A stretch of 64,000 bases of DNA from Chloroflexota bacterium (GTDB taxonomy: Bacteria; Chloroflexota; Dehalococcoidia; Lucifugimonadales; SAR202-VII-2): the NCBI GenBank assembly GCA_003228115.1, contig QEVV01000004.1:85175-149174 (forward strand), given 5' to 3'. The position numbers were made by a program, and so were the translations under genes. Within the stretch, counting starts at the first letter, position 1. Each line of letters opens with the position of its first letter. Below the pieces are notes generated by a model, which had not been told where the DNA came from, did no database searches, and saw nothing but the letters and a program-made list of their open reading frames with translations. Shown piece after piece: positions 2,311 to 52,997 of the stretch.

Positions 2311-2883
2311 TTATTCCTGGATGGTCAGTTGGGAGGAGAAATCGACGGCCCTCAGAGAGTGCCGAGTGGGGGAAAGGTCTTCTGCCATCTTGGCGACCTG
2401 CTCCAATTGCTCTCGGGGCGCGCTGCTTTTGACGTAATAACTGGCCCGGATTTCTTGAAACCCTGGGGGTACAGCACCGAGAACCGGTAGGGCCAGCATA
2501 CCCTGGAGATCGATATCGCCTTCAACCTCTATCCTCAATCCCTCAATGGAGACACCCATGGTCGCCCCGTAGGTCGCCCAGCCTGAAGCCAAGCAGTGAC
2601 CCAGGGCAGCCAGTAGCACTTCCACCGAGGACGGGCCTTTGTCCGTTCCCAGAAGCTCCTGGGGATGGTCACCTACTATAGTGAAGGCTTTCTGGCGGGA
2701 AGTATCGTTCCTAGCACCGCCCATGGAAAACGGCTTGACTACGGCCTCGTTATGGAAGCCGCCTCTCCATATGGTAGTCGCTGAGAAAACAGCTTTGGCG
2801 ACCTCGGGCTGCGCCGTCACCATCTCCACCATGCCTTGAATCCCCTCCACACTCAGCCCATTGACGCTCGTTGTCGTTGTCAT
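2311..2883 (-). CDS. OsmC/Ohr family peroxiredoxin-like protein
   Basis: 190-aa ORF with GGAGG before the ATG. OsmC-like core LLAALGHCLASG and C-terminal beta region. Confidence 0.75.
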   Translation of the reverse strand: MTTTTSVNGLSVEGIQGMVEMVTAQPEVAKAVFSATTIWRGGFHNEAVVKPFSMGGARNDTSRQKAFTIVGDHPQELLGTDKGPSSVEVLLAALGHCLASGWATYGATMGVSIEGLRIEVEGDIDLQGMLALPVLGAVPPGFQEIRASYYVKSSAPREQLEQVAKMAEDLSPTRHSLRAVDFSSQLTIQE

Positions 2884-3061
2884 TGCGAGACCTCCCTGTA
2901 AAGACTGTCCCCATTGTCCAGGGAATACAGGCTCGCTTCATCTGACAAACGTCGGATTTTAGTGGGCCGAATCTTTCTAAAAGAAAGTAGGCGACACGGC
3001 GCTGGGTGGAATTTGGGAGGACACAGGTCTAGACGCTAGCGCCTCCTTAAGGGACGCTCGC

Positions 3062-4666
3062 TTAGGCCAGAAGGCCGTGTTCCACAGCGAAGAGTGTTGC
3101 GGTGGCCCGGCTGGAAACGCCGATCTTGCTGTAGACATGCTCCAAGTGTGACCGGACAGTTCCTTCGGCTATAAAGAGGGCATTTGCAACCTGCCGACGA
3201 TTGAGACCCTTGGCTATCAGACGGAGCACCTCCACCTCGCGATCGGTGAGCCCGGCTGGCCACTCTTGCTGGCGAGTCCTCTGTCTGTGGGAACGGTCCA
3301 CGCCACTCAGTTCGTCCGTAAGAGCCTGGAAAACATCCGTAGAGAACCTTGCCCCTACTTCTTGGCGCATTACTTCGACCGCCTGATCGATCTCGCGGGC
3401 AGGACTGCCAGGTGAGTCGTGCGTAAGCTCGTCGAATCGATCAGCTAAAGCTATTATCCGTGCGCCCACCGGTATCTGGGAGCCCTGAACCCCACGATAA
3501 TAACCGCTACCGTCCATTCGTTCATGGTGTGCCGCCACCAGGGGAATAATCGCCACTAGGGCTGGTACTTTGGACAGAATTCGCTCCGAATGGTACGGGT
3601 GGAGCCGCACTTGCTCCCGCTCGGCCTCCGTGAGGGTTTCCGGGAACTTGTTCAGCACGAAGGAGGGTACTGCCACAATCCCAATATCATGCACCAAGGC
3701 AGCTTGGTAGATGGTGGTTACCTGCGATTCGTTAAGCCCCATCCTCCGAGCGATGCGGTCAGCCAGATCGGCTATTCGGCGCGAACGACCGGCCAGAAAC
3801 GGCGATTTCAGGTCGGCGTAGTCGGCCAAGGCCAGCGTCACATCAGTCAGCTTCTCCTCCCCCATGTACTGATAGGGAGACTGCTCTGGCTCCATGGAAA
3901 GGACGCTGTCCCAGACCCTTTCCTCTTCCAGTCCTCGCCAGAAGCTTTCCTTCCGCGCCACGGAGAGGAAGGCATCAACCACCGACGGATCAAAGGCTTT
4001 GTTGCGTCTGGCCTGTGCCACATGCATTGCGGCATCACGGCCCTCCACTCGATGGAAGACCTCCAGAAAGCTCGTCACCAATACGATACGAGAGATGACA
4101 GGGATGGCGCCTTTCTTATTGCCGTATGGCATCCCGTGGCCATCCCACTGCTCAAAGACCTGCATCAACGCATCCTGGACTGACTGTGGCATTCCCAGCC
4201 GCTGGGCAATGCGTGAAGCCACAAGGCAGGTGTTTTCAAAACCCTCCTTCATAAACGCCCGGCCCTTTACCAGGAAGTCCAGAATATGGTTTGCACGGGT
4301 TGGCAAGGATGCTCCAGCCGCCACGTACTTCATCAGCCATGAAGCAATATCCAAGGGGTTCCGAGCATTGCGAAAGAACTGAAGGTCCCGCTTGGCAACA
4401 AGCTCGTCGACAAGCCAAGAACTGGCTAACTGACTGGTGTACGTAGTGCAGCCGGCGTCCTTTAACAGCTCAGCGTAGAACAGGTCGGTGCGCTGGTCTA
4501 AAGGAAGCTCCATCTCCTGAGCAATGTGCATGCCAATATAGCAAGAGCGCGCCCCGTGCTCCGTGTGCATCCCCAACGCGAGGTCGCTCGCCAGCGAGAA
4601 GGCCCCCAACAGGTCAGCAGTACGAAGGGCGTTCCCTTCTCGGCTCGCCGATGGTAGCTCTGCCAT
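3062..4666 (-). CDS. HD / HD-GYP domain protein fused to a LuxR-type HTH
   Basis: AAGGAG lies 7 nt before the ATG. N-terminal HD-like region, HD-GYP signature HHERMDGSGYYRG, and C-terminal LTDREVEVLRLIAKGL..TVRSHLEHVYSKIGV (LuxR/GerE HTH). Confidence 0.75.
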   Translation of the reverse strand: MAELPSASREGNALRTADLLGAFSLASDLALGMHTEHGARSCYIGMHIAQEMELPLDQRTDLFYAELLKDAGCTTYTSQLASSWLVDELVAKRDLQFFRNARNPLDIASWLMKYVAAGASLPTRANHILDFLVKGRAFMKEGFENTCLVASRIAQRLGMPQSVQDALMQVFEQWDGHGMPYGNKKGAIPVISRIVLVTSFLEVFHRVEGRDAAMHVAQARRNKAFDPSVVDAFLSVARKESFWRGLEEERVWDSVLSMEPEQSPYQYMGEEKLTDVTLALADYADLKSPFLAGRSRRIADLADRIARRMGLNESQVTTIYQAALVHDIGIVAVPSFVLNKFPETLTEAEREQVRLHPYHSERILSKVPALVAIIPLVAAHHERMDGSGYYRGVQGSQIPVGARIIALADRFDELTHDSPGSPAREIDQAVEVMRQEVGARFSTDVFQALTDELSGVDRSHRQRTRQQEWPAGLTDREVEVLRLIAKGLNRRQVANALFIAEGTVRSHLEHVYSKIGVSSRATATLFAVEHGLLA

Positions 4667-4731
4667 TAGCCCACTCCTTGCTCAAGGTAGTGTGCGCCCG
4701 CTCATGATTGCCGCCATCTCCCTCTTCCATA

Positions 4732-4767
4732 GCAACAAACATGTAAGCGGCAACAAACATGTAGGCG
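4732..4767. promoter_or_regulatory. tandem 18-mer, candidate operator upstream of the HD-GYP/LuxR gene
   Basis: GCAACAAACATGTAAGCG GCAACAAACATGTAGGCG (one mismatch). Each unit holds the ACATGT palindrome. 66-101 nt upstream of the start codon at 4666. Confidence 0.4.
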
Positions 4768-5045
4768 CTCGAGAGTCTTAGCGGCCGGAGGCCGAGCTGC
4801 CCGTTGGCATCCCCGGAATCCATTCGACCTTGGGGGTCAACGGGGCTCGCAGGTGTCCTATGAAACTCCGGCACGTTGCTTGAGCCACCGCCCCCGGCGC
4901 AGAGACGGAGCCTTCTTGCTCCTTGAGCATATGCGCAGGGAGGCGCAGGGAAGGGCCAGGCTAGAACCGTACGAGGGCAGTGTAGATGGGAAAGCGTCGT
5001 AGACCAAACCGACGGCGTGCCCCTCAAGGGGAACCCGGTGAGCCC

Positions 5046-5798
5046 CTATCTCTTCCCCGCTGCCTCCGGCTGAGCCAACAGCCGCCCAAAGCCCGGCACC
5101 GGCCGCTGAATACCCAGCTGGTTCATAGCCCACCAAGAGATCGCTTGGAACTGGGTGACCACTGGCTTTCCGGTCGCCTGCTCAATGCGGTCGATGTTGC
5201 GCACAACCGGCCATTGCGGGCAGGAAAAGAAAATGCCGTCCGTGTCGGGATGCTCATTGAACGCTTCCATCGCCATCTCGAAAGGCTGGTCGAACGTTCC
5301 CTCGCTGAGCTGCTGAGCCAACGACAGGTGCAGGCCCTTCGAGGCTACGACCTCGAACCCGGCTGTCTCAAAGGCGCCGATCGCCCTTCGCAATATGGCG
5401 TCTTGGTAGTTGCTGATAATGGTGATCCGCTGCATGCCAAGCTCTCGAAGCGCAGCCATGACCGCAGCGATGTCCGTCGTCACGGGAACCGCGCCGCCAG
5501 CGTATCGGCTCATGTCCTCGGCAAGCTGAAGGTAGTACTCCGGCCCTTGAGAGGTAATCACAGGGATGCCGCCAAAAGCGATGGCGCTAGCCTTGCGCTC
5601 CACCAACTCCTTGACGCATGTCTCCACCATTGCCAGCGCCTTCTTGTACTCTTCGGCGCTGTGGTCAGCCATGCCTAGCACGGAGAGACACCAGCTCACG
5701 CCCTCCGGCACGACCTGCATCGCCTCATACATTGCGGTCTCATTAGTCCGCGGCGGTGAGATCAGCCCAATGGTGCCCAGTGGCCCGTAGATGCCCAT
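5046..5798 (-). CDS. Asp/Glu/hydantoin racemase superfamily protein (maleate isomerase / arylmalonate decarboxylase-like)
   Basis: 250-aa ORF with GGGAGG before the ATG. N-terminal G.IGLISP pattern; paralog of 38994..39710. Confidence 0.65.
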   Translation of the reverse strand: MGIYGPLGTIGLISPPRTNETAMYEAMQVVPEGVSWCLSVLGMADHSAEEYKKALAMVETCVKELVERKASAIAFGGIPVITSQGPEYYLQLAEDMSRYAGGAVPVTTDIAAVMAALRELGMQRITIISNYQDAILRRAIGAFETAGFEVVASKGLHLSLAQQLSEGTFDQPFEMAMEAFNEHPDTDGIFFSCPQWPVVRNIDRIEQATGKPVVTQFQAISWWAMNQLGIQRPVPGFGRLLAQPEAAGKR

Positions 5799-5943
5799 GA
5801 GTAACCTCCCGCCCTAGTCTTCAACAGCGCTACCGAGAGCCTTTGGCGGAGGTTATTCGGTATACTGCTGAACTGCAACCCTCCACCGCAATTGTTTCCA
5901 AGGCTCGATACTCACAGGGCGCGCGGACGCCGCAGGAGGCGAA

Positions 5944-7269
5944 GTGACCGACTCAGTGCAGCCCAGCCGTAGCCGCGACGTAGCCGATATCATCGAGGGC
6001 GACCGCGATGAACTGGTCGCTCTGGCTCTGGATTTGGCTGGCATCCACAGCCCGGCTGGCCACGAGCGCCCGGCAGCAGAGTTCGTCGCCAACTGGCTCA
6101 ACCAGGCAGGCATCCAGTCCCGGGTCCAGCCCCTCACAGCGGACAGCGCCAACGCTATCGGCCTAATTCGTGGCAACGACAGCGGCAGGAGTCTCATCTT
6201 CGACGCCCACCTCGACAACGAGCCTCCCGCTGGGGGCGCACCCGCCACAGAGATGGAGCAACGCCTAGAGCGAGGTTTCGTTGAAGACGGCCTCCTCGTC
6301 GGGCCCACAATCATCAACTGCAAGGGCCAGGTAGCCGCCTTCCTCATCGCCGCCCGCGCCATCCACAAATCTGGAATTCAGCTTGGTGGCGACCTGACCG
6401 TCGCCGCCGTGGCCTCCGAAACAGGCCAGCCGTCGGTCGGCAACCACCAGGGCATCGACTATCCCGGCGAAGGCTTCGGCACTCGGTGGATGATCGACCG
6501 CGGCGTCATTGCCGACTACGCCCTCATCGGCGAAACGTCAGGCTTCGGTATTGTTGCCGCCGAATGTGGCGTGGCCCAAATTCAGGTCAGCGTTCCTGGG
6601 CGCGTGGTCTACACACCCCGCCTCACGCGGCCCGCCGACTGGCAGTCCCACCCCAACCCTTTCGTGAAGGCCAGCCATATCGTTCAGGCCCTTGAGGTAT
6701 GGGCAGAGGGCTACGAACACCAAGCCACCGTCGAGTTTTATGGCGGTACGATTGTCCCCAAAGCCCAAGTGGTCGGCATCGACGGCGGCCCTAACGGATC
6801 CCATTTTGGCAGCCCTGAATGCGTCATCTATCTCGATGTCCGGCTGGCCCCAGGCGCTGACCCGAAAGCGGTGCGCCGGGAGGTGTCCGACGCGGTGAAG
6901 GCGCTGGGCGTGTCCGCCGAGGTGTCGCTTTATCAGTGGTCGAGAGGCTTTATAGCCCAAAACGTAGAGCCCCTTATCGAAGCCATCGAAACAGCCCACC
7001 ACTCCCTGCACGGTGAAGCCCCACCTCCGCCGCCGGCAGCCGAGATGAGCATGTGGCGGGACATCAACCCCTTCAACGAGGTGGGCATACCGGCGGTGTG
7101 CTACGGACCTCCCCGCCTCCAGGACCCCTACTCGAAAGTCGGCAACCGCGCCATGAAAATCGATGACCTCGTCGCAGCAACCAAGGTCTACGCGATGACG
7201 GCATTACAGATCTGCGGCGTCAGCAACCAAACGGATCGTCCTCCCTCCTTAGGAGAGGGAGGGAGTTAA
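5944..7269 (+). CDS. M20 family metallopeptidase (ArgE/DapE/ACY1/CPG2-like)
   Basis: GTG start 4 nt after AGGAGG. 441 aa with M20-like metal-binding regions (FDAHLD, GETSG). The last ~10 codons run into a GGGAGGG-type repeat. Confidence 0.75.
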   Translation: MTDSVQPSRSRDVADIIEGDRDELVALALDLAGIHSPAGHERPAAEFVANWLNQAGIQSRVQPLTADSANAIGLIRGNDSGRSLIFDAHLDNEPPAGGAPATEMEQRLERGFVEDGLLVGPTIINCKGQVAAFLIAARAIHKSGIQLGGDLTVAAVASETGQPSVGNHQGIDYPGEGFGTRWMIDRGVIADYALIGETSGFGIVAAECGVAQIQVSVPGRVVYTPRLTRPADWQSHPNPFVKASHIVQALEVWAEGYEHQATVEFYGGTIVPKAQVVGIDGGPNGSHFGSPECVIYLDVRLAPGADPKAVRREVSDAVKALGVSAEVSLYQWSRGFIAQNVEPLIEAIETAHHSLHGEAPPPPPAAEMSMWRDINPFNEVGIPAVCYGPPRLQDPYSKVGNRAMKIDDLVAATKVYAMTALQICGVSNQTDRPPSLGEGGS

Positions 7270-48637: not shown

Positions 48638-49447
48638 ATGCCTGAGATCGAAAATCAGGTTGCTATCATCACCGGGGCAGGCCGCATGCGGGGCATTGGC
48701 CGTGCCGCAGCCTTGGCCCTTGCTGACGCTGGATGCGACATCGTGCTCACCGGGACCGGCCGCGACCCTTCAGCCTTTCCTGATGACGAGAAACAGGCAG
48801 GATGGAGCGACATCGAAAGCGTAGCTGATGAGGTGCGGGCCCTGGGCAGACGAGCACTGCCCCTGGTGGTCAACGTCGCTGACGCAGATCAGGTGGAAAA
48901 CATGGTCAAGCAGGCCGTGAGTTCCCTGGGCCGCGTCGACATCCTTGTGAACAACGCTGCCTTCCTCCGCGGCGTAGATCGCGTTCCCGTCGTCGATCTG
49001 CCGGAGGAGTTGTTCCGCAAGGTGATGGAGATCAAGATGGTCGGCACCTTCCTATGTTCCCAGGCTGTGGCTCGTCACCTCATCGACCAAGGCCAGGGCG
49101 GCTCCATCGTCAACGTCTCTTCCACTGCTGGCCGCCGAGGCCTTGCGAACACGGCAGCCTACTGCGCCGCCAACTTCGCCGTGCACGGATTCACTCAGTC
49201 GTTGGCCTTGGAGCTTGCCACACACCAGATACGGGTCAACGCCGTGTGCCCCGGCCTCATCGACACCGAGCGCAACGAGCTCCTCAAGGAAGATGACCGC
49301 TGGGACAGGCAACTCCACAGCATCCCCCTGGGCCACGCAGGCACTGCCGACGACATCGGCCAAGCCATACGCTTCCTCTGCTCGCCCGGCGCCGCCTACA
49401 TAACCGGCGAGTACATCAACATCAACGGTGGCTCCGTTATGCAGTAG
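48638..49447 (+). CDS. SDR family oxidoreductase (FabG-like)
   Basis: TGAGRMRGIG cofactor motif, NNAA, and the S...Y..aK catalytic pattern (YCAANFA). Confidence 0.8.
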   Translation: MPEIENQVAIITGAGRMRGIGRAAALALADAGCDIVLTGTGRDPSAFPDDEKQAGWSDIESVADEVRALGRRALPLVVNVADADQVENMVKQAVSSLGRVDILVNNAAFLRGVDRVPVVDLPEELFRKVMEIKMVGTFLCSQAVARHLIDQGQGGSIVNVSSTAGRRGLANTAAYCAANFAVHGFTQSLALELATHQIRVNAVCPGLIDTERNELLKEDDRWDRQLHSIPLGHAGTADDIGQAIRFLCSPGAAYITGEYININGGSVMQ

Positions 49448-49559
49448 CAGTTCCTCCACAAGCCACACATCGGTGACAGCAGTTCGGCCTCCAAGCCCGC
49501 CAGATCCACACAACCCTTGACGTGCTGAAAGAGTCCGAATGCGCAATTTGCTTCCCACC

Positions 49560-49586
49560 GTCATTCCGGCGAAAGCCGGAACCCAG
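49560..49586 (+). repeat. family-C hairpin repeat
   Basis: GTCATTCCGGCGAAAGCCGGAACCCAGG, in the amt upstream region. Confidence 0.7.
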
Positions 49587-49787
49587 GAACGTCCGTTCAG
49601 CGAGACATGGGCCGAACAACCCCAATCCTACCGCCCCACCCCCTTCACCAAGCCAACCTGCGATCCCAGCGGGGTGCAGAACACACCGAGAACCATCCTC
49701 AGCACCTTGCTCCCTCAGCGCCCTCGGGTGATTACCTCGTTCCAACATCCCGTATCACCCCCTGCCCACACCATTGTTTGGCAACCT

Positions 49788-49858
49788 GTAACAAAACGTT
49801 AACAACGTCGCAACATGCCGGAAACTCACCCCTCGTACATTGGAAACAACGTTCTAAC
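49788..49858 (+). promoter_or_regulatory. phased nnAAC pentamer array (GlnR-box-like) upstream of amt
   Basis: GTAAC(49788) n6 TTAAC(49799) n6 GCAAC(49810) n6 GAAAC(49821), then in the same 11-bp phase GAAAC(49843) n6 CTAAC(49854). ATG at 49874. Confidence 0.5.
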
Positions 49859-49873
49859 AGGGGAGGTTCCGGC

Positions 49874-51289
49874 ATGTTCAAACTCATTCGGAGCAGGAAG
49901 GGCAAGATATCGATTCTCGCCTTGTGGGGCATGGCCATCTTCTTGATGTCCGGCGGTCTGGCCCTGGCCCAAGACCCAAGCGGCGCAGCCACGCTAGCTG
50001 CCGACTCCACCGCGGCCGTGAACTTCACGTGGACATTGATGGCCGCGTTCTTAGTGTTCTTCATGCAGGCGGGCTTCGCCTTCTTGGGAGCGGGCCTAAT
50101 CCGCTCCAAGAACACGGTCAACTATATGACCAAGAGCTTCATGGACTTTGCTGTCGCAGCCCTCAGCTTCTGGGCCTTCGGCTTCGCTTTGATGTTCGGT
50201 GGTTCAGCGGTTGCCTCCGGCCTCATGGATGGTAACGCCTGGATCGGCTACTCAGGCTTCTTCCTCAGCGGCCAGGCCTATGACGTCTCCACCGCTGAGT
50301 TGTGGATTTTCCAGATGGTCTTCGCCGGTACCGCTGCAACCATTGTGGCCGGAGCCGTCGCTGAGCGTATGAAGATCAACGCCTACCTCGCCTACGCATT
50401 CATCGTCGGCGCTATCATCTACCCCTTGTACGGCCACCAGATCTGGGGCGGCGGCTGGCTCTCCACCCTCGATTTGGGTGCTGGAGCTGTCGACTTCGCC
50501 GGCTCCGGTGTCGTCCACGCCGTCGGTGGGTTCGTTGGGCTGGCCGGGGCCATTATGGTCGGCGCCCGCATTGGCAAGTTCAACGCCGACGGAACATCCA
50601 ACGACATCAGGGGTCACAATATCCCCTACATCCCAATAGGCGTCTTTATACTGTTCTTTGGATGGTTCGGCTTCAACGCCGGTTCCACCCTGGCGGCGAC
50701 AGAGCTTCGCATTTCCATCATAGCTGTGAACACGCTACTGGCAGGGGCAGCGGGCGCTATTGTCGGCCTGTACTACTCCATCGCCCGTACCGGCAAGGCC
50801 GACATTGGCTCCGCCGCCAACGGCACCCTGGCTGGCCTCGTAGGCATCACCGCCTCCTGCGCTTGGGTCGCGCCATGGGCCGCAGTGGTCATCGGCATAA
50901 TCGCCGCACTGGTCATGAAGGGCAGCAGCTACGCCGTTGAGCGTTGGCTCAAGGTGGACGACCCGGTCGGCGCTGTCTCGGTTCACGGTGCTGCTGGCAT
51001 CTGGGGGCTCCTCTCAGTCGGCTTCTTCGCCGACGGCACCTATGGCAACTACACAACCGACGGCCCCTTTGTCACCGGCCTGTTCTACGGTGAATGGGAG
51101 CAACTGGCGGCCCAGCTCATCAGCGCCGTTATGGTTGTAGCTTGGTCCCTGGGCACCGGCCTGCTCCTCTTCTGGGTGCTCAAGAAGACCATGGGAATCC
51201 GTGCGTCCCGAGAGGAAGAACTAGAAGGGCTGGACATGCCAGAGCATGGGCTCGCCGCCTACCCAGAGTTCGTAAGTCCACAAAAGTGA
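49874..51289 (+). CDS. amt: ammonium transporter
   Basis: ORF 49607..51289. ATG 49874 follows GGGGAGG and gives a signal peptide (..GGLALAQDP). FAFLGAGLIRSKN and DFAGSGVVH motifs. Strong terminator downstream. Confidence 0.9.
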   Translation: MFKLIRSRKGKISILALWGMAIFLMSGGLALAQDPSGAATLAADSTAAVNFTWTLMAAFLVFFMQAGFAFLGAGLIRSKNTVNYMTKSFMDFAVAALSFWAFGFALMFGGSAVASGLMDGNAWIGYSGFFLSGQAYDVSTAELWIFQMVFAGTAATIVAGAVAERMKINAYLAYAFIVGAIIYPLYGHQIWGGGWLSTLDLGAGAVDFAGSGVVHAVGGFVGLAGAIMVGARIGKFNADGTSNDIRGHNIPYIPIGVFILFFGWFGFNAGSTLAATELRISIIAVNTLLAGAAGAIVGLYYSIARTGKADIGSAANGTLAGLVGITASCAWVAPWAAVVIGIIAALVMKGSSYAVERWLKVDDPVGAVSVHGAAGIWGLLSVGFFADGTYGNYTTDGPFVTGLFYGEWEQLAAQLISAVMVVAWSLGTGLLLFWVLKKTMGIRASREEELEGLDMPEHGLAAYPEFVSPQK

Positions 51290-51355
51290 GGCTTCTAGGC
51301 GCCGCTTCGGCCAGAATGGTCGCAAGCAGCTAGATGTCATTCCCAGCGGACAAGA

Positions 51356-51396
51356 GAAGGAGCGCCCCGACGACATCGGGGCGCTCCTTCTTTTGT
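51356..51396 (+). terminator. rho-independent terminator of amt
   Basis: 14-bp stem GAAGGAGCGCCCCG/CGGGGCGCTCCTTC, loop ACGACAT, then TTTTGT. Confidence 0.85.
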
Positions 51397-51465
51397 CTGC
51401 GCTGTTCGCTGGAAGCTTGCGGGACCCCATCTAGCCCGACTCCCAGGCGCCAGGCTCGCGAAAAT

Positions 51466-51503
51466 GAAACACAAACGTAACATCCCCGCAATTGGCTTGT
51501 AAT
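51466..51503 (+). promoter_or_regulatory. phased pentamer array (GlnR-box-like) upstream of small ORF copy 1
   Basis: GAAAC(51466) n6 GTAAC(51477) n6 GCAAT(51488) n6 GTAAT(51499). TGTAAT (51498-51503) could double as the -10. Confidence 0.45.
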
Positions 51504-51558
51504 AAAAGCCTGGCATTCTAGTGGCAACGAAAACAATTTCCCTATGAGGTGTTGAACC

Positions 51559-51645
51559 ATGGAAATCATTATTGCAGGAGTCGCCTTCGTAGCACTGTTC
51601 GGCCTTTGGGTCATCGTACCGAGCAAGCTGCTCCGCAAGCGCTAA
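51559..51645 (+). CDS. 28-aa single-TM small membrane protein, copy 1 (MEIIIAGVAFVALFGLWVIVPSKLLRKR)
   Basis: Below the ORF-track length cutoff. GAGGTG lies 7 nt before the ATG, and an intrinsic terminator follows. Peptide identical to copy 2 despite 7 nucleotide differences, all synonymous. Confidence 0.75.
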   Translation: MEIIIAGVAFVALFGLWVIVPSKLLRKR

Positions 51646-51665
51646 ACACAAGACCTTGGTAGAGA

Positions 51666-51704
51666 AGAGCGCTCCGGCAATGTCGGAGCGCTCTTTCTTT
51701 TTGT
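51666..51704 (+). terminator. rho-independent terminator of small ORF copy 1
   Basis: AGAGCGCTCCG GCAATGT CGGAGCGCTCT, then TTCTTTTTGT. Confidence 0.85.
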
Positions 51705-51759
51705 CCCGCCACTGGCGGACTCAGCGTAGGCTGTGCTATCGTGCCGCTCTCACTCAACC

Positions 51760-51797
51760 GCAACGCAAACGTAACATGCCTGCAATTGGCCTGTAAT
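51760..51797 (+). promoter_or_regulatory. phased pentamer array (GlnR-box-like) upstream of small ORF copy 2
   Basis: GCAAC(51760) n6 GTAAC(51771) n6 GCAAT(51782) n6 GTAAT(51793). Confidence 0.45.
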
Positions 51798-51853
51798 ACT
51801 GGCGTGGCATTCTGTTACTAACGAAAGTAATTCTTCTTCCAGGGGTGTCAGAC

Positions 51854-51940
51854 ATGGAAATCATTATAGCAGGAGTCGCCTTCGTCGCACTGTTCGGCCT
51901 CTGGGTCATCGTACCAAGCAAGCTCCTTCGCAAACGCTAA
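51854..51940 (+). CDS. 28-aa single-TM small membrane protein, copy 2
   Basis: Same peptide as 51559..51645. AGGGGTG upstream, with its own intrinsic terminator. Confidence 0.75.
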   Translation: MEIIIAGVAFVALFGLWVIVPSKLLRKR

Positions 51941-51962
51941 ACACCCGGGACCTTGGGGATAT

Positions 51963-51998
51963 GAAACGCTCCTGCAATGCGGGAGCGTTTCTTTTTTG
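51963..51998 (+). terminator. rho-independent terminator of small ORF copy 2
   Basis: GAAACGCTCC TGCAATGCG GGAGCGTTTC, then TTTTTT. Confidence 0.85.
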
Positions 51999-52043
51999 CC
52001 CTGTGCTAGGATGTTCCTACGCCCAGGCAGGAGAAGTAACAAC

Positions 52044-52997
52044 ATGAAAGTCCGCATAGGTATGGCGCCCACCACTCTCCCCGCGGGAAAGGAGGGAGCC
52101 GACCTTTTCTGGCGCACCATGGACCTCTGCGACTCCCTAGACTTTGACTCCGTTTGGCTCAGTGATAGGCCTGTAGGCCCCCGCATTAGCATGGAACCCA
52201 TGGTTGGCATGGCGGCCGTGGCCGGCCGATACCCCAAGCTCAAGTTTGGCACCAGCGTGCTCATCCTCTCAATAAGGCAACCCGTCCTCCTGGCCAAAGA
52301 ACTAGCGACCTTCGACTATCTTTCGGGGGGGCGTATCTTCCCCGCCATCGGCTTGGGGCAAGACGACCCAAGAGAATACGAGGCCATGGGAACTCGCAAA
52401 GAAGACCGAGGACGCCGCGTTGATGAAGCCATCCCCCTGCTGCGCCGCCTCTGGACGGAAGACAACGTTACCCACCATGGGGAGTTCTACACACTCAACG
52501 ATGTGACGGTTGAGCCTAAGCCTCTTCAAAAGCCCTGCATCCCCCTATGGATTGGGGGCCGCAGCAAGGCCGCCCAACGCCGCATTGGCCGGTTGGGCGA
52601 CGGATGGCTCTGCTCCAGCGCGACGGCCGCTGAGATGGAGGAAGGCATCACCGTCATCAATTCGACCGCAGGTGAGGCTGGGCGGTCCGTGCCTGAGGAC
52701 CACATGGGGGCGAACATAGGCTTCCGCATCGACGCCAGCAAGGAAGCTGGTGTAGAGAACGCAGCTCCCTTCGCCATCCGGCTCCGGCCGGACGCCGATT
52801 TCGCTTCCTACGCCGCTCTGGGCACAGCAGAGGATGTTGTCTCCACACTTCGCGACTACGTCGCCGCCGGAGTCACCAAATTCGTGCTGCGGCCCATGTG
52901 CCACCCGGAGGAAATGGAAGACCAACTCCGTCGCGCCGGCGAGGATGTAATCCCAGCGTTTCACTCAGATAGGGCCGGAACGAAGATCACAGCTTGA
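52044..52997 (+). CDS. LLM-class (luciferase-like) flavin/F420-dependent oxidoreductase
   Basis: ORF 51996..52997. ATG 52044 follows AGGAGAAG. FDSVWLSDR, LA.L..LSGGR...G.G and P..P.WIGG patterns. Confidence 0.8.
   Translation: MKVRIGMAPTTLPAGKEGADLFWRTMDLCDSLDFDSVWLSDRPVGPRISMEPMVGMAAVAGRYPKLKFGTSVLILSIRQPVLLAKELATFDYLSGGRIFPAIGLGQDDPREYEAMGTRKEDRGRRVDEAIPLLRRLWTEDNVTHHGEFYTLNDVTVEPKPLQKPCIPLWIGGRSKAAQRRIGRLGDGWLCSSATAAEMEEGITVINSTAGEAGRSVPEDHMGANIGFRIDASKEAGVENAAPFAIRLRPDADFASYAALGTAEDVVSTLRDYVAAGVTKFVLRPMCHPEEMEDQLRRAGEDVIPAFHSDRAGTKITA

Follow-up and report, generated by a model that had tools for sequence, protein, structure and literature searches.

Tandem genes for a conserved 28-residue peptide downstream of amt in a Dehalococcoidia genome, and a putative promoter element common to amt and the peptide genes

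Two independently terminated copies of an 87-nt gene

The locus of interest lies in a 64-kb window (64,000 nt of contig QEVV01000004.1, from a Chloroflexota bacterium of the class Dehalococcoidia), to which all coordinates refer unless a related locus is named. Downstream of the ammonium transporter gene amt, positions 51401–52000 hold a 295-nt direct repeat, each copy of which contains one 87-nt open reading frame (ORF). The two ORFs—gene 1 at 51559..51645 and gene 2 at 51854..51940, both on the plus strand—encode the same 28-amino-acid (aa) product, MEIIIAGVAFVALFGLWVIVPSKLLRKR. They differ at seven nucleotides, every one of them a third-position, synonymous change (codons 5, 11, 16, 21, 24, 25 and 27). 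An initial annotation of the window had reported this pair of ORFs and their single peptide; the coordinates, the translation and the list of differing codons were all confirmed.

Each ORF is accompanied by its own signals for translation and termination. A Shine-Dalgarno sequence precedes the ATG by 7 nt in gene 1 (GAGGTG, 51546..51551) and by 6 nt in gene 2 (GGGGTG, 51842..51847). GC-rich terminator hairpins begin ~20 nt past each stop codon: the gene 1 intrinsic terminator occupies 51664..51704 (stem 51664–51696, then a T-run; -28.3 kcal/mol, z-score -4.4) and that of gene 2 occupies 51963..51997 (stem 51963–51991, then a T-run; -27.7 kcal/mol, z -6.1). The upstream gene, amt, lies at 49874..51289 on the same strand and encodes a 471-aa ammonium transporter (TIGR00836, 428 bits, 4e-128; PF00909 on public contigs). 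It ends in an intrinsic terminator of its own, with a 25-bp stem, at 51346..51400 (-51.9 kcal/mol, z -8.7). All three terminators fold strongly, and the earlier description of the units as independently terminated therefore holds.

The two repeat copies have diverged unevenly. The repeat period is 295 nt within the ORF, at 92% identity, and 294 nt within the leader, at 75% identity; outside the ORFs, unit-to-unit identity is 69% over 110 nt upstream and 62% over 75 nt downstream. It was thus correctly noted at the outset that the flanks (69–75% in the leader, 62% downstream) have diverged more than the coding parts.

The peptide genes are uncalled in all four public contigs that carry the locus, and the initial annotation had noted their absence from the ORF list of the window. 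The exact 28-aa sequence is present, unnamed, in a public protein collection (P0012). Prodigal, a widely used gene caller, has a minimum gene length of 90 nt, and the peptide gene measures 87 nt including its stop codon. The peptide genes expose a clear annotation gap.

Neither an RNA family nor a PII gene was found at the locus. An Rfam search of positions 49000–52600 at E<=10 gave only sub-threshold matches, to terminator hairpins, and the same search of 11 related loci gave a single tRNA at gathering score and no other family. The RNA comprising untranslated region (UTR) and ORF folds no better than shuffled sequence (z +0.8 and +2.1 for the two units). A tblastn search with E. coli GlnB returned no matches in the window at E<=0.01, while the positive control, a related locus that carries a PII gene (L027), matched at 4e-23; the initial annotation's statement that the window lacks PII is upheld. 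Nor is the peptide itself a protein of this kind: PII/GlnK proteins have ~112 aa, the PII fold and a T-loop, and the peptide has 28 aa.

Family-wide evidence for a translated membrane peptide

Under chance, seven of seven changes would be synonymous with P ~6e-5 (21.2 synonymous and 62.8 nonsynonymous sites). The initial annotation took this pattern to reflect purifying selection on a translated peptide. That reading is borne out by the family as a whole, but the window pair alone is weaker support than was stated, and is not decisive, for two reasons. Firstly, the opposite strand has an open frame as well, with the wobble position in common: it gives minus-strand ORFs at 51330..51638 and 51754..51933, whose products are one residue apart between the copies. 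By the genetic code, only TTA, CTA or TCA codons in the sense frame would interrupt such a frame. Secondly, gene conversion limited to the ORFs is possible, because the two ORFs of one genome resemble each other more closely (92% identity in the window, 83% in the sister clade L012–L015) than orthologous copies do (76%). In their flanks, copies 1 and 2 of the window are orthologous to copies 1 and 2, respectively, of the sister clade (6016–6102 and 6344–6430 in L012). The flanks indicate that the duplication is older than the split between the two clades, and the greater likeness of the ORFs within each genome suggests concerted evolution limited to the coding part.

Strand and frame are settled only by family-wide data, for which 49 unique 26-codon cores were compared. 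The plus-strand frame has the highest amino-acid identity of the frames (0.61), and its substitutions are conservative (mean BLOSUM62 +0.17). The antisense frame with the same wobble position, although open in all 49 cores, shows lower identity (0.51) and radical substitutions (mean BLOSUM62 -0.71). Column entropy at codon positions 1, 2 and 3 is 17.7, 13.4 and 34.4, and the median pairwise dN/dS is 0.22. Third positions vary freely, so constraint on the RNA itself is slight. The peptides keep to a fixed length of 27–33 aa (49–53 aa in one clade), whereas open frames on the antisense strand span 35 to 197 aa, and family members have a Shine-Dalgarno sequence 6–8 nt ahead of a conserved start. 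On its substitution pattern and variable length, the antisense ORF was rejected as the real gene. On these sequence comparisons, both ORFs are very probably translated peptide genes on the plus strand.

Relatives of so short a product were sought with a doubled 59-aa query, a 31-aa version beginning at a GTG start, and an alignment with a 40-aa first row for the profile. At E<=1, the profile search returned 114 proteins with 102 distinct cores; none has a Pfam domain, and they are unnamed or, at most, labelled 'hypothetical protein'. Against the family hidden Markov model (HMM), genes 1 and 2 score 69.3 and 67.6 bits, respectively. The consensus of the 102 cores is x-E-A-I-L-G-G-V-A-F-V-G-L-F-G-L-W-V-V-L-P-S-K-L-R-K, in which E2, A9, F10, L13, F14, W17, V18 and P21 are near-invariant, and most cores carry 3–5 Lys/Arg among the eight residues past P21. 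Mean Kyte-Doolittle hydropathy over residues 3–20 is 2.87; the N-terminus is acidic and the tail after Pro21 basic. We infer a single transmembrane helix, predicted by the positive-inside rule to be oriented N-out/C-in. F10, L13/F14, W17/V18 and P21 are spaced every 3–4 residues and would fall on one face of such a helix, a pattern that would fit a helix-helix contact.

The family matches no Pfam or NCBIfam model, and the initial annotation had not recognised it. The best matches of the window peptide in Pfam and NCBIfam are DUF2970 (E 0.082; 13.2 bits against a cut-off of 27) and NF045849 (E 0.16), and neither assigns it to a family. Among 13 aligned members, none passed in NCBIfam, and in Pfam one alone reached even E 0.082. 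No PDB chain is matched by the family profile at E<=1, and our literature search found nothing on this peptide family.

A pattern scan of one genome per species (185,579 species), with neighbourhoods assigned by HMM and marker scan, yielded 34 confirmed loci, all in Chloroflexota metagenome-assembled genomes and nearly all labelled Dehalococcoidia. The gene directly upstream of the peptide gene is amt in 29 of the 34 loci, and two further loci are cut by a contig end. Amt identity among the genomes that conserve this position is only 54–92%. The commonest layout among relatives is amt-peptide-glnA-glnA-gltB; no PII gene stands beside the peptide gene in 33 of the 34 loci. The clade of the window keeps amt and the peptide genes, though glnA is absent from the 64-kb window. 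Sister clade L012–L015 has the same neighbourhood as the window (an SDR gene, amt, two peptide genes, a luciferase-like oxidoreductase gene, a DtxR-type repressor gene and priA), and its two peptides are four residues apart.

Copy number and gene order vary around this theme. Several lineages have two or three peptide genes in tandem, every copy with a promoter-like element of its own; in L053 (5094–6019; the same in L054), three tandem peptide genes follow amt, with upstream box sets (described below) scoring 33.8, 31.5 and 39.4 bits. Five genomes (L017, L018, L022, L023 and L030; about 3500–6800) have the order amt-peptide-peptide'-amt2. Their Amt paralogues are ~33% identical, each with its own diverged peptide paralogue, and they have no PII gene. 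The L027 locus reads amt-peptide-amt2-PII-glnA-gltB: the second Amt paralogue is followed by PII (5334–6909), and the peptide gene is found after the first only. The order is peptide-amt in L011 and peptide-peptide-glnA in L016, the latter with no amt within 6 kb.

Several members are more divergent. L024, L025 and L032 (~5001–5494) carry tandem pairs of a 49–53-aa subfamily that is without E2 and has long acidic C-terminal tails. Boxes stand ahead of both copies in L024 and L025, and ahead of the first only in L032, where the second copy starts 51 nt after the first. None of these three loci has amt or glnA within 5 kb; the neighbours in L024 include hydantoinase/oxoprolinase and zinc alcohol dehydrogenase genes. 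A 39-aa member with an acidic tail (L051/L052, 5007–5120) lies, with no upstream boxes, on a 50.6-kb contig with DnaB-like, AAA_25, MazE and HTH genes; a plasmid or phage-like element may have picked up this copy (the contig name ends in '_c' in L052). In addition, amt is split into two ORFs in L006 (4313–5765) and L031 (2962–4186), the L031 peptide ORF (4426–4518) has a disrupted N-terminus, and the second copy in L015 (6343–6441) has a 4-residue insertion in its tail. These altered genes could reflect pseudogenisation or long-read assembly errors.

A four-box element ahead of amt and the peptide genes

Nearly every peptide gene in the family is preceded by four 5-nt boxes, (G/T)TAAC or GAAAC, at an exact 11-bp spacing. 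A -10-like element follows ~10 nt past the last box; it reads ATAAT in most clades and CATTCT at the peptide genes of the window. Gene 1 has the set GAAAC-n6-GTAAC-n6-GCAAT-n6-GTAAT at 51466..51503 (24.4 bits against the matrix described below), with CATTCT at 51514..51519, 10 nt past the last box. Gene 2 has GCAAC-n6-GTAAC-n6-GCAAT-n6-GTAAT at 51760..51797 (20.9 bits) and, in the same box-to-hexamer layout, the identical CATTCT at 51808..51813. A third set, GTAAC-n6-TTAAC-n6-GCAAC-n6-GAAAC, lies ahead of amt at 49788..49825 (39.4 bits, the best in the window) and is a putative GlnR/OmpR-type activator site. Its -10-like hexamer, TACATT (49836..49841), again lies 10 nt past the last box, the spacing seen at the peptide promoters of relatives. 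All of these elements are on the plus strand. The box element is an addition to what the initial annotation had observed.

A 38-nt weight matrix was built from 44 peptide-promoter sites, leaving out the clade of the window, and the whole window was scanned on both strands. At >=10 bits, distinct sites occur only before amt, peptide gene 1 and peptide gene 2. The remaining matches above this threshold are two 11-nt register shifts of the peptide sites, and no match in 20 shuffles rose above 6 bits. Across 40 loci, the matrix gave 53 matches before peptide genes and 28 before amt. No box match lies directly before a glnA that follows a peptide gene in these 40 loci, and where relatives have the peptide gene between amt and glnA, no box set other than the one ahead of the peptide gene lies in that interval.

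The published actinomycete GlnR box is gTnAc-n6-GaAAc or GTnAC-n6-GTnAC (PMC3087709). The window boxes fit it in words and spacing, recur with an 11-bp period and lie upstream of amt and the peptide genes. As with the actinomycete boxes, the same 5-nt words and 6-nt spacers, here in a set of four boxes, precede amt, and the element sits where an activator would take the place of the -35 element. PhoB/OmpR-type activator-dependent promoters likewise have their last box 10 nt ahead of the -10. The Chloroflexota element differs from the actinomycete system in its host, in that no GlnR orthologue was found in the window, and in that the peptide-adjacent glnA genes of the relatives examined have no boxes of their own. 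In our literature search, GlnR-like boxes had not been described for Chloroflexota.

A tblastn search found no OmpR-family regulator gene in the window. In L027, a gene at 2333–3010 on the minus strand, divergent from amt at 3317, encodes an atypical OmpR-family protein. Its Trans_reg_C winged-helix domain is full and its receiver half degenerate, with response-regulator models matching only from residue >=44 (from ~85 onward for most) and a GlnR_1st match of E 0.0015, below cut-off. This protein is a candidate for the factor that binds the boxes.

A 19-nt inverted repeat (49812–49830 and 49860–49878; 89% complementary) pairs the last two amt boxes (AACATGCCGGAAACTCACC) with the Shine-Dalgarno sequence and start codon of amt (GGGGAGGTTCCGGCATGTT). 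It would fold only in a read-through transcript, because transcription is predicted to start past its 5' arm, and it is kept only partly in L012 and L014. Two other promoter types, proposed by eye, were rejected: a sigma-54 promoter (TGGCAT..TGGCA in unit 1) is contradicted by the lack of a GC element in the second unit and by its spacing, and the spacing of an NtcA site (GTA-n8-TAC) does not fit.

Taken together, the common element makes it probable that amt and both peptide genes belong to a single predicted regulon, which is presumably nitrogen-responsive. The box element may be a nitrogen-regulon signature for Dehalococcoidia.

A possible partner of Amt, and the alternatives

The work above characterizes (i) a pair of small genes, (ii) the family to which they belong and (iii) a motif that they have in common with amt; these three are solid, and the function that we propose is a well-motivated hypothesis. 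The initial annotation had raised a role connected with nitrogen and Amt as plausible, and the case is strengthened by the conserved family, its position after amt in 29 of 34 loci, and the motif common to amt. Our overall reading, to which we assign a probability of roughly 0.55, is that the product is a nitrogen-regulon, single-pass membrane peptide, predicted N-out/C-in, that acts with Amt.

In mechanistic terms, each 295-nt unit would be a small monocistronic gene with an OmpR/PhoB/GlnR-type activator-dependent promoter, in which the four boxes cover about -60 to -23 and are followed by the -10-like hexamer. The predicted mRNA of ~175 nt would run from ~7 nt past each CATTCT hexamer (near 51526 and 51820) to the terminator T-runs (near 51704 and 51997) and consist of a 5' UTR of ~33 nt with the Shine-Dalgarno sequence, 28 codons and the strong intrinsic terminator. 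Through the common box set, a GlnR-like winged-helix activator encoded outside the window would switch on amt and both peptide genes together, presumably at nitrogen limitation. The peptide would then bind the Amt trimer in the membrane as an accessory or regulatory subunit, much as AcrZ, MgtS and further small membrane proteins act on their transporters, and the two gene copies would supply dosage; extra copies would make sense if the peptide is needed in amounts similar to those of an abundant trimeric channel. An accessory or regulatory Amt subunit is the best-supported role, given the linkage to amt, the putative co-regulation, the near-invariant helix residues and the repeated gain of copies. 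Direct binding of the peptide to Amt is a tentative proposal, which we judge to fall somewhat short of an even chance. A bolder version is doubtful: that Amt is controlled or completed by a stoichiometric transmembrane micro-subunit of 27–33 aa, made from one, two or three genes that each have a promoter of their own, controlled by a GlnR-like nitrogen activator, and replacing part of the role of GlnK.

The proposal has precedents of several kinds. KdpF of the Kdp pump is one example of a small membrane protein associated with a transporter. Others act on E. coli transporters as single-pass proteins: AcrZ (49 aa) with AcrB, MgtS (31 aa) with MgtA and PitA, MgtR/MgtU, and SgrT (PMC10710835). 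The peptide resembles the AcrZ/MgtS type in its ~30 aa, its single hydrophobic helix with a charged end, its transporter linkage or co-regulation, and the ease with which annotation misses it. Measured against the AcrZ/MgtS/KdpF functional class, it has the size (<=50 aa), the single helix and the linkage, and its co-regulation is predicted. It differs from the AcrZ/MgtS type in having no sequence relationship to it, in its presumed partner (an Amt channel), in its own activator-type promoter and in its tandem arrays of two or three. No transmembrane peptide partner of an Amt channel was found in the literature searched.

The nearest functional precedents, likened by description and not by sequence, come from Methanosarcina mazei. 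There, sP36 (61 aa) is induced by nitrogen limitation, acts post-translationally on ammonium uptake and binds AmtB1 and GlnK1; it relocates from the cytoplasm to the membrane and works via GlnK1 (PMC10714827). A second small protein of nitrogen limitation, sP26, acts post-translationally on glutamine synthetase (cited in PMC11456600). Unlike sP36, the Chloroflexota peptide is itself hydrophobic, half the size and bacterial, with no adjoining PII gene in nearly all loci. The comparison with the amtB-glnK pair, in which the PII protein GlnK plugs AmtB (PMC10710835), is one of position: the peptide gene takes the slot directly downstream of amt that glnK usually fills, and is presumably expressed with amt. 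The product differs from GlnK in being short and membrane-embedded, without a T-loop, and in having its own promoter and terminator.

Several observations weigh against this interpretation. The partnership with Amt rests on synteny and putative co-regulation. The peptide gene is conserved beside glnA too, and it occurs without amt in L016, in L024/L025/L032 and on the 50.6-kb DnaB-like/MazE contig; given the amt-less loci and the glnA linkage, the partner need not be Amt. The scores of the peptide promoters are partly circular, as the matrix was trained on peptide promoters, and the independent part of that result consists of the amt matches and the lack of any other match in the window. The -10 elements are weak, and a generic sigma-70 scan finds no promoter at the peptide genes. 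Lastly, the two window copies may look more constrained than they are as a result of gene conversion, since similarity within the genome exceeds that between orthologues.

The most serious alternative, though an unlikely one, is a nitrogen-regulon membrane peptide with a target other than Amt: glutamine synthetase, a sensor kinase or regulator, or the membrane generally. It draws on the place of the gene between amt and glnA in most relatives, where the only intervening box set is its own, on the peptide-peptide-glnA order of L016, on the boxes that persist in L024/L025/L032 with no amt within 5 kb, and on the example of sP26 (cited in PMC11456600). Set against these are the constancy of amt as a neighbour (29 of 34 loci, plus L011, L053 and L055), the retention of amt and the peptide genes by a clade whose 64-kb window lacks glnA, and the accompaniment of two Amt paralogues by two peptide paralogues in the L017 type. 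Furthermore, glutamine synthetase is a soluble enzyme, and the peptide is conserved in its intramembrane portion.

It is improbable that the product is a type I toxin-like or stress peptide with no connection to ammonium transport, acting by depolarisation of the membrane. Type I toxin loci typically encode a small hydrophobic peptide with a charged tail, have their own promoter and terminator, occur in tandem copies and go unannotated. The window locus shows these traits, and a relative in the family shares its 50.6-kb contig with DnaB-like, AAA and MazE genes. Toxin loci are patchy, whereas the place of the peptide gene beside amt is stable down to 54% Amt identity, and its promoter motif is common to amt. 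Within the units, no promoter-like or terminator-like site was found on the minus strand, and the 5' UTR, poorly conserved outside the boxes, gives no hint of a conserved antisense RNA.

There is also a slim chance that the ORF is a cis-acting leader peptide (an upstream ORF), the translation of which controls terminator read-through into glnA or amt in relatives, or into the luciferase-like oxidoreductase gene in the window. In many relatives, the peptide gene is indeed the first ORF after the only nitrogen-type promoter before glnA, amt (L011) or amt2 (L017 type), and a terminator often lies between it and the next gene. But the ORFs contain no run of codons for a sensed amino acid, nor repeated regulatory codons such as those for Gln or Asn; conservation goes beyond an open frame and extends to a hydrophobic helix with fixed residues. 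The body of the mRNA, as the fold scores above indicate, has no alternative structure, and no Rfam riboswitch or leader family was matched (including the glutamine riboswitch and the Downstream-peptide motif). In the clade of the window, moreover, the units are repeated and stand alone, and the gene downstream has no evident nitrogen link.

A non-coding RNA gene, or the antisense ORF as the functional one, is very improbable: despite the open antisense frame and its near-identical products, the boxes, Shine-Dalgarno sequences and terminator T-runs are all oriented along the plus strand, third positions are free, and neither an RNA family nor excess structure was detected.

Amt/Rh channels occur across the whole of life. 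Modulation of transporters by small membrane peptides is already known, and so are small proteins of nitrogen control in archaea and cyanobacteria; the established bacterial regulator of Amt is the cytoplasmic PII protein GlnK (PMC10710835). Should Amt indeed be controlled or completed by such a micro-subunit, this would be a novel way of regulating Amt, and the peptide would be the first partner of an Amt/Rh channel within the membrane. The box signature is a candidate nitrogen-regulon marker for Chloroflexota, usable for mapping regulons in metagenome-assembled genomes. In a large and mostly uncultured class, the link between amt and a conserved membrane peptide would suggest that control has a second layer, located inside the membrane.

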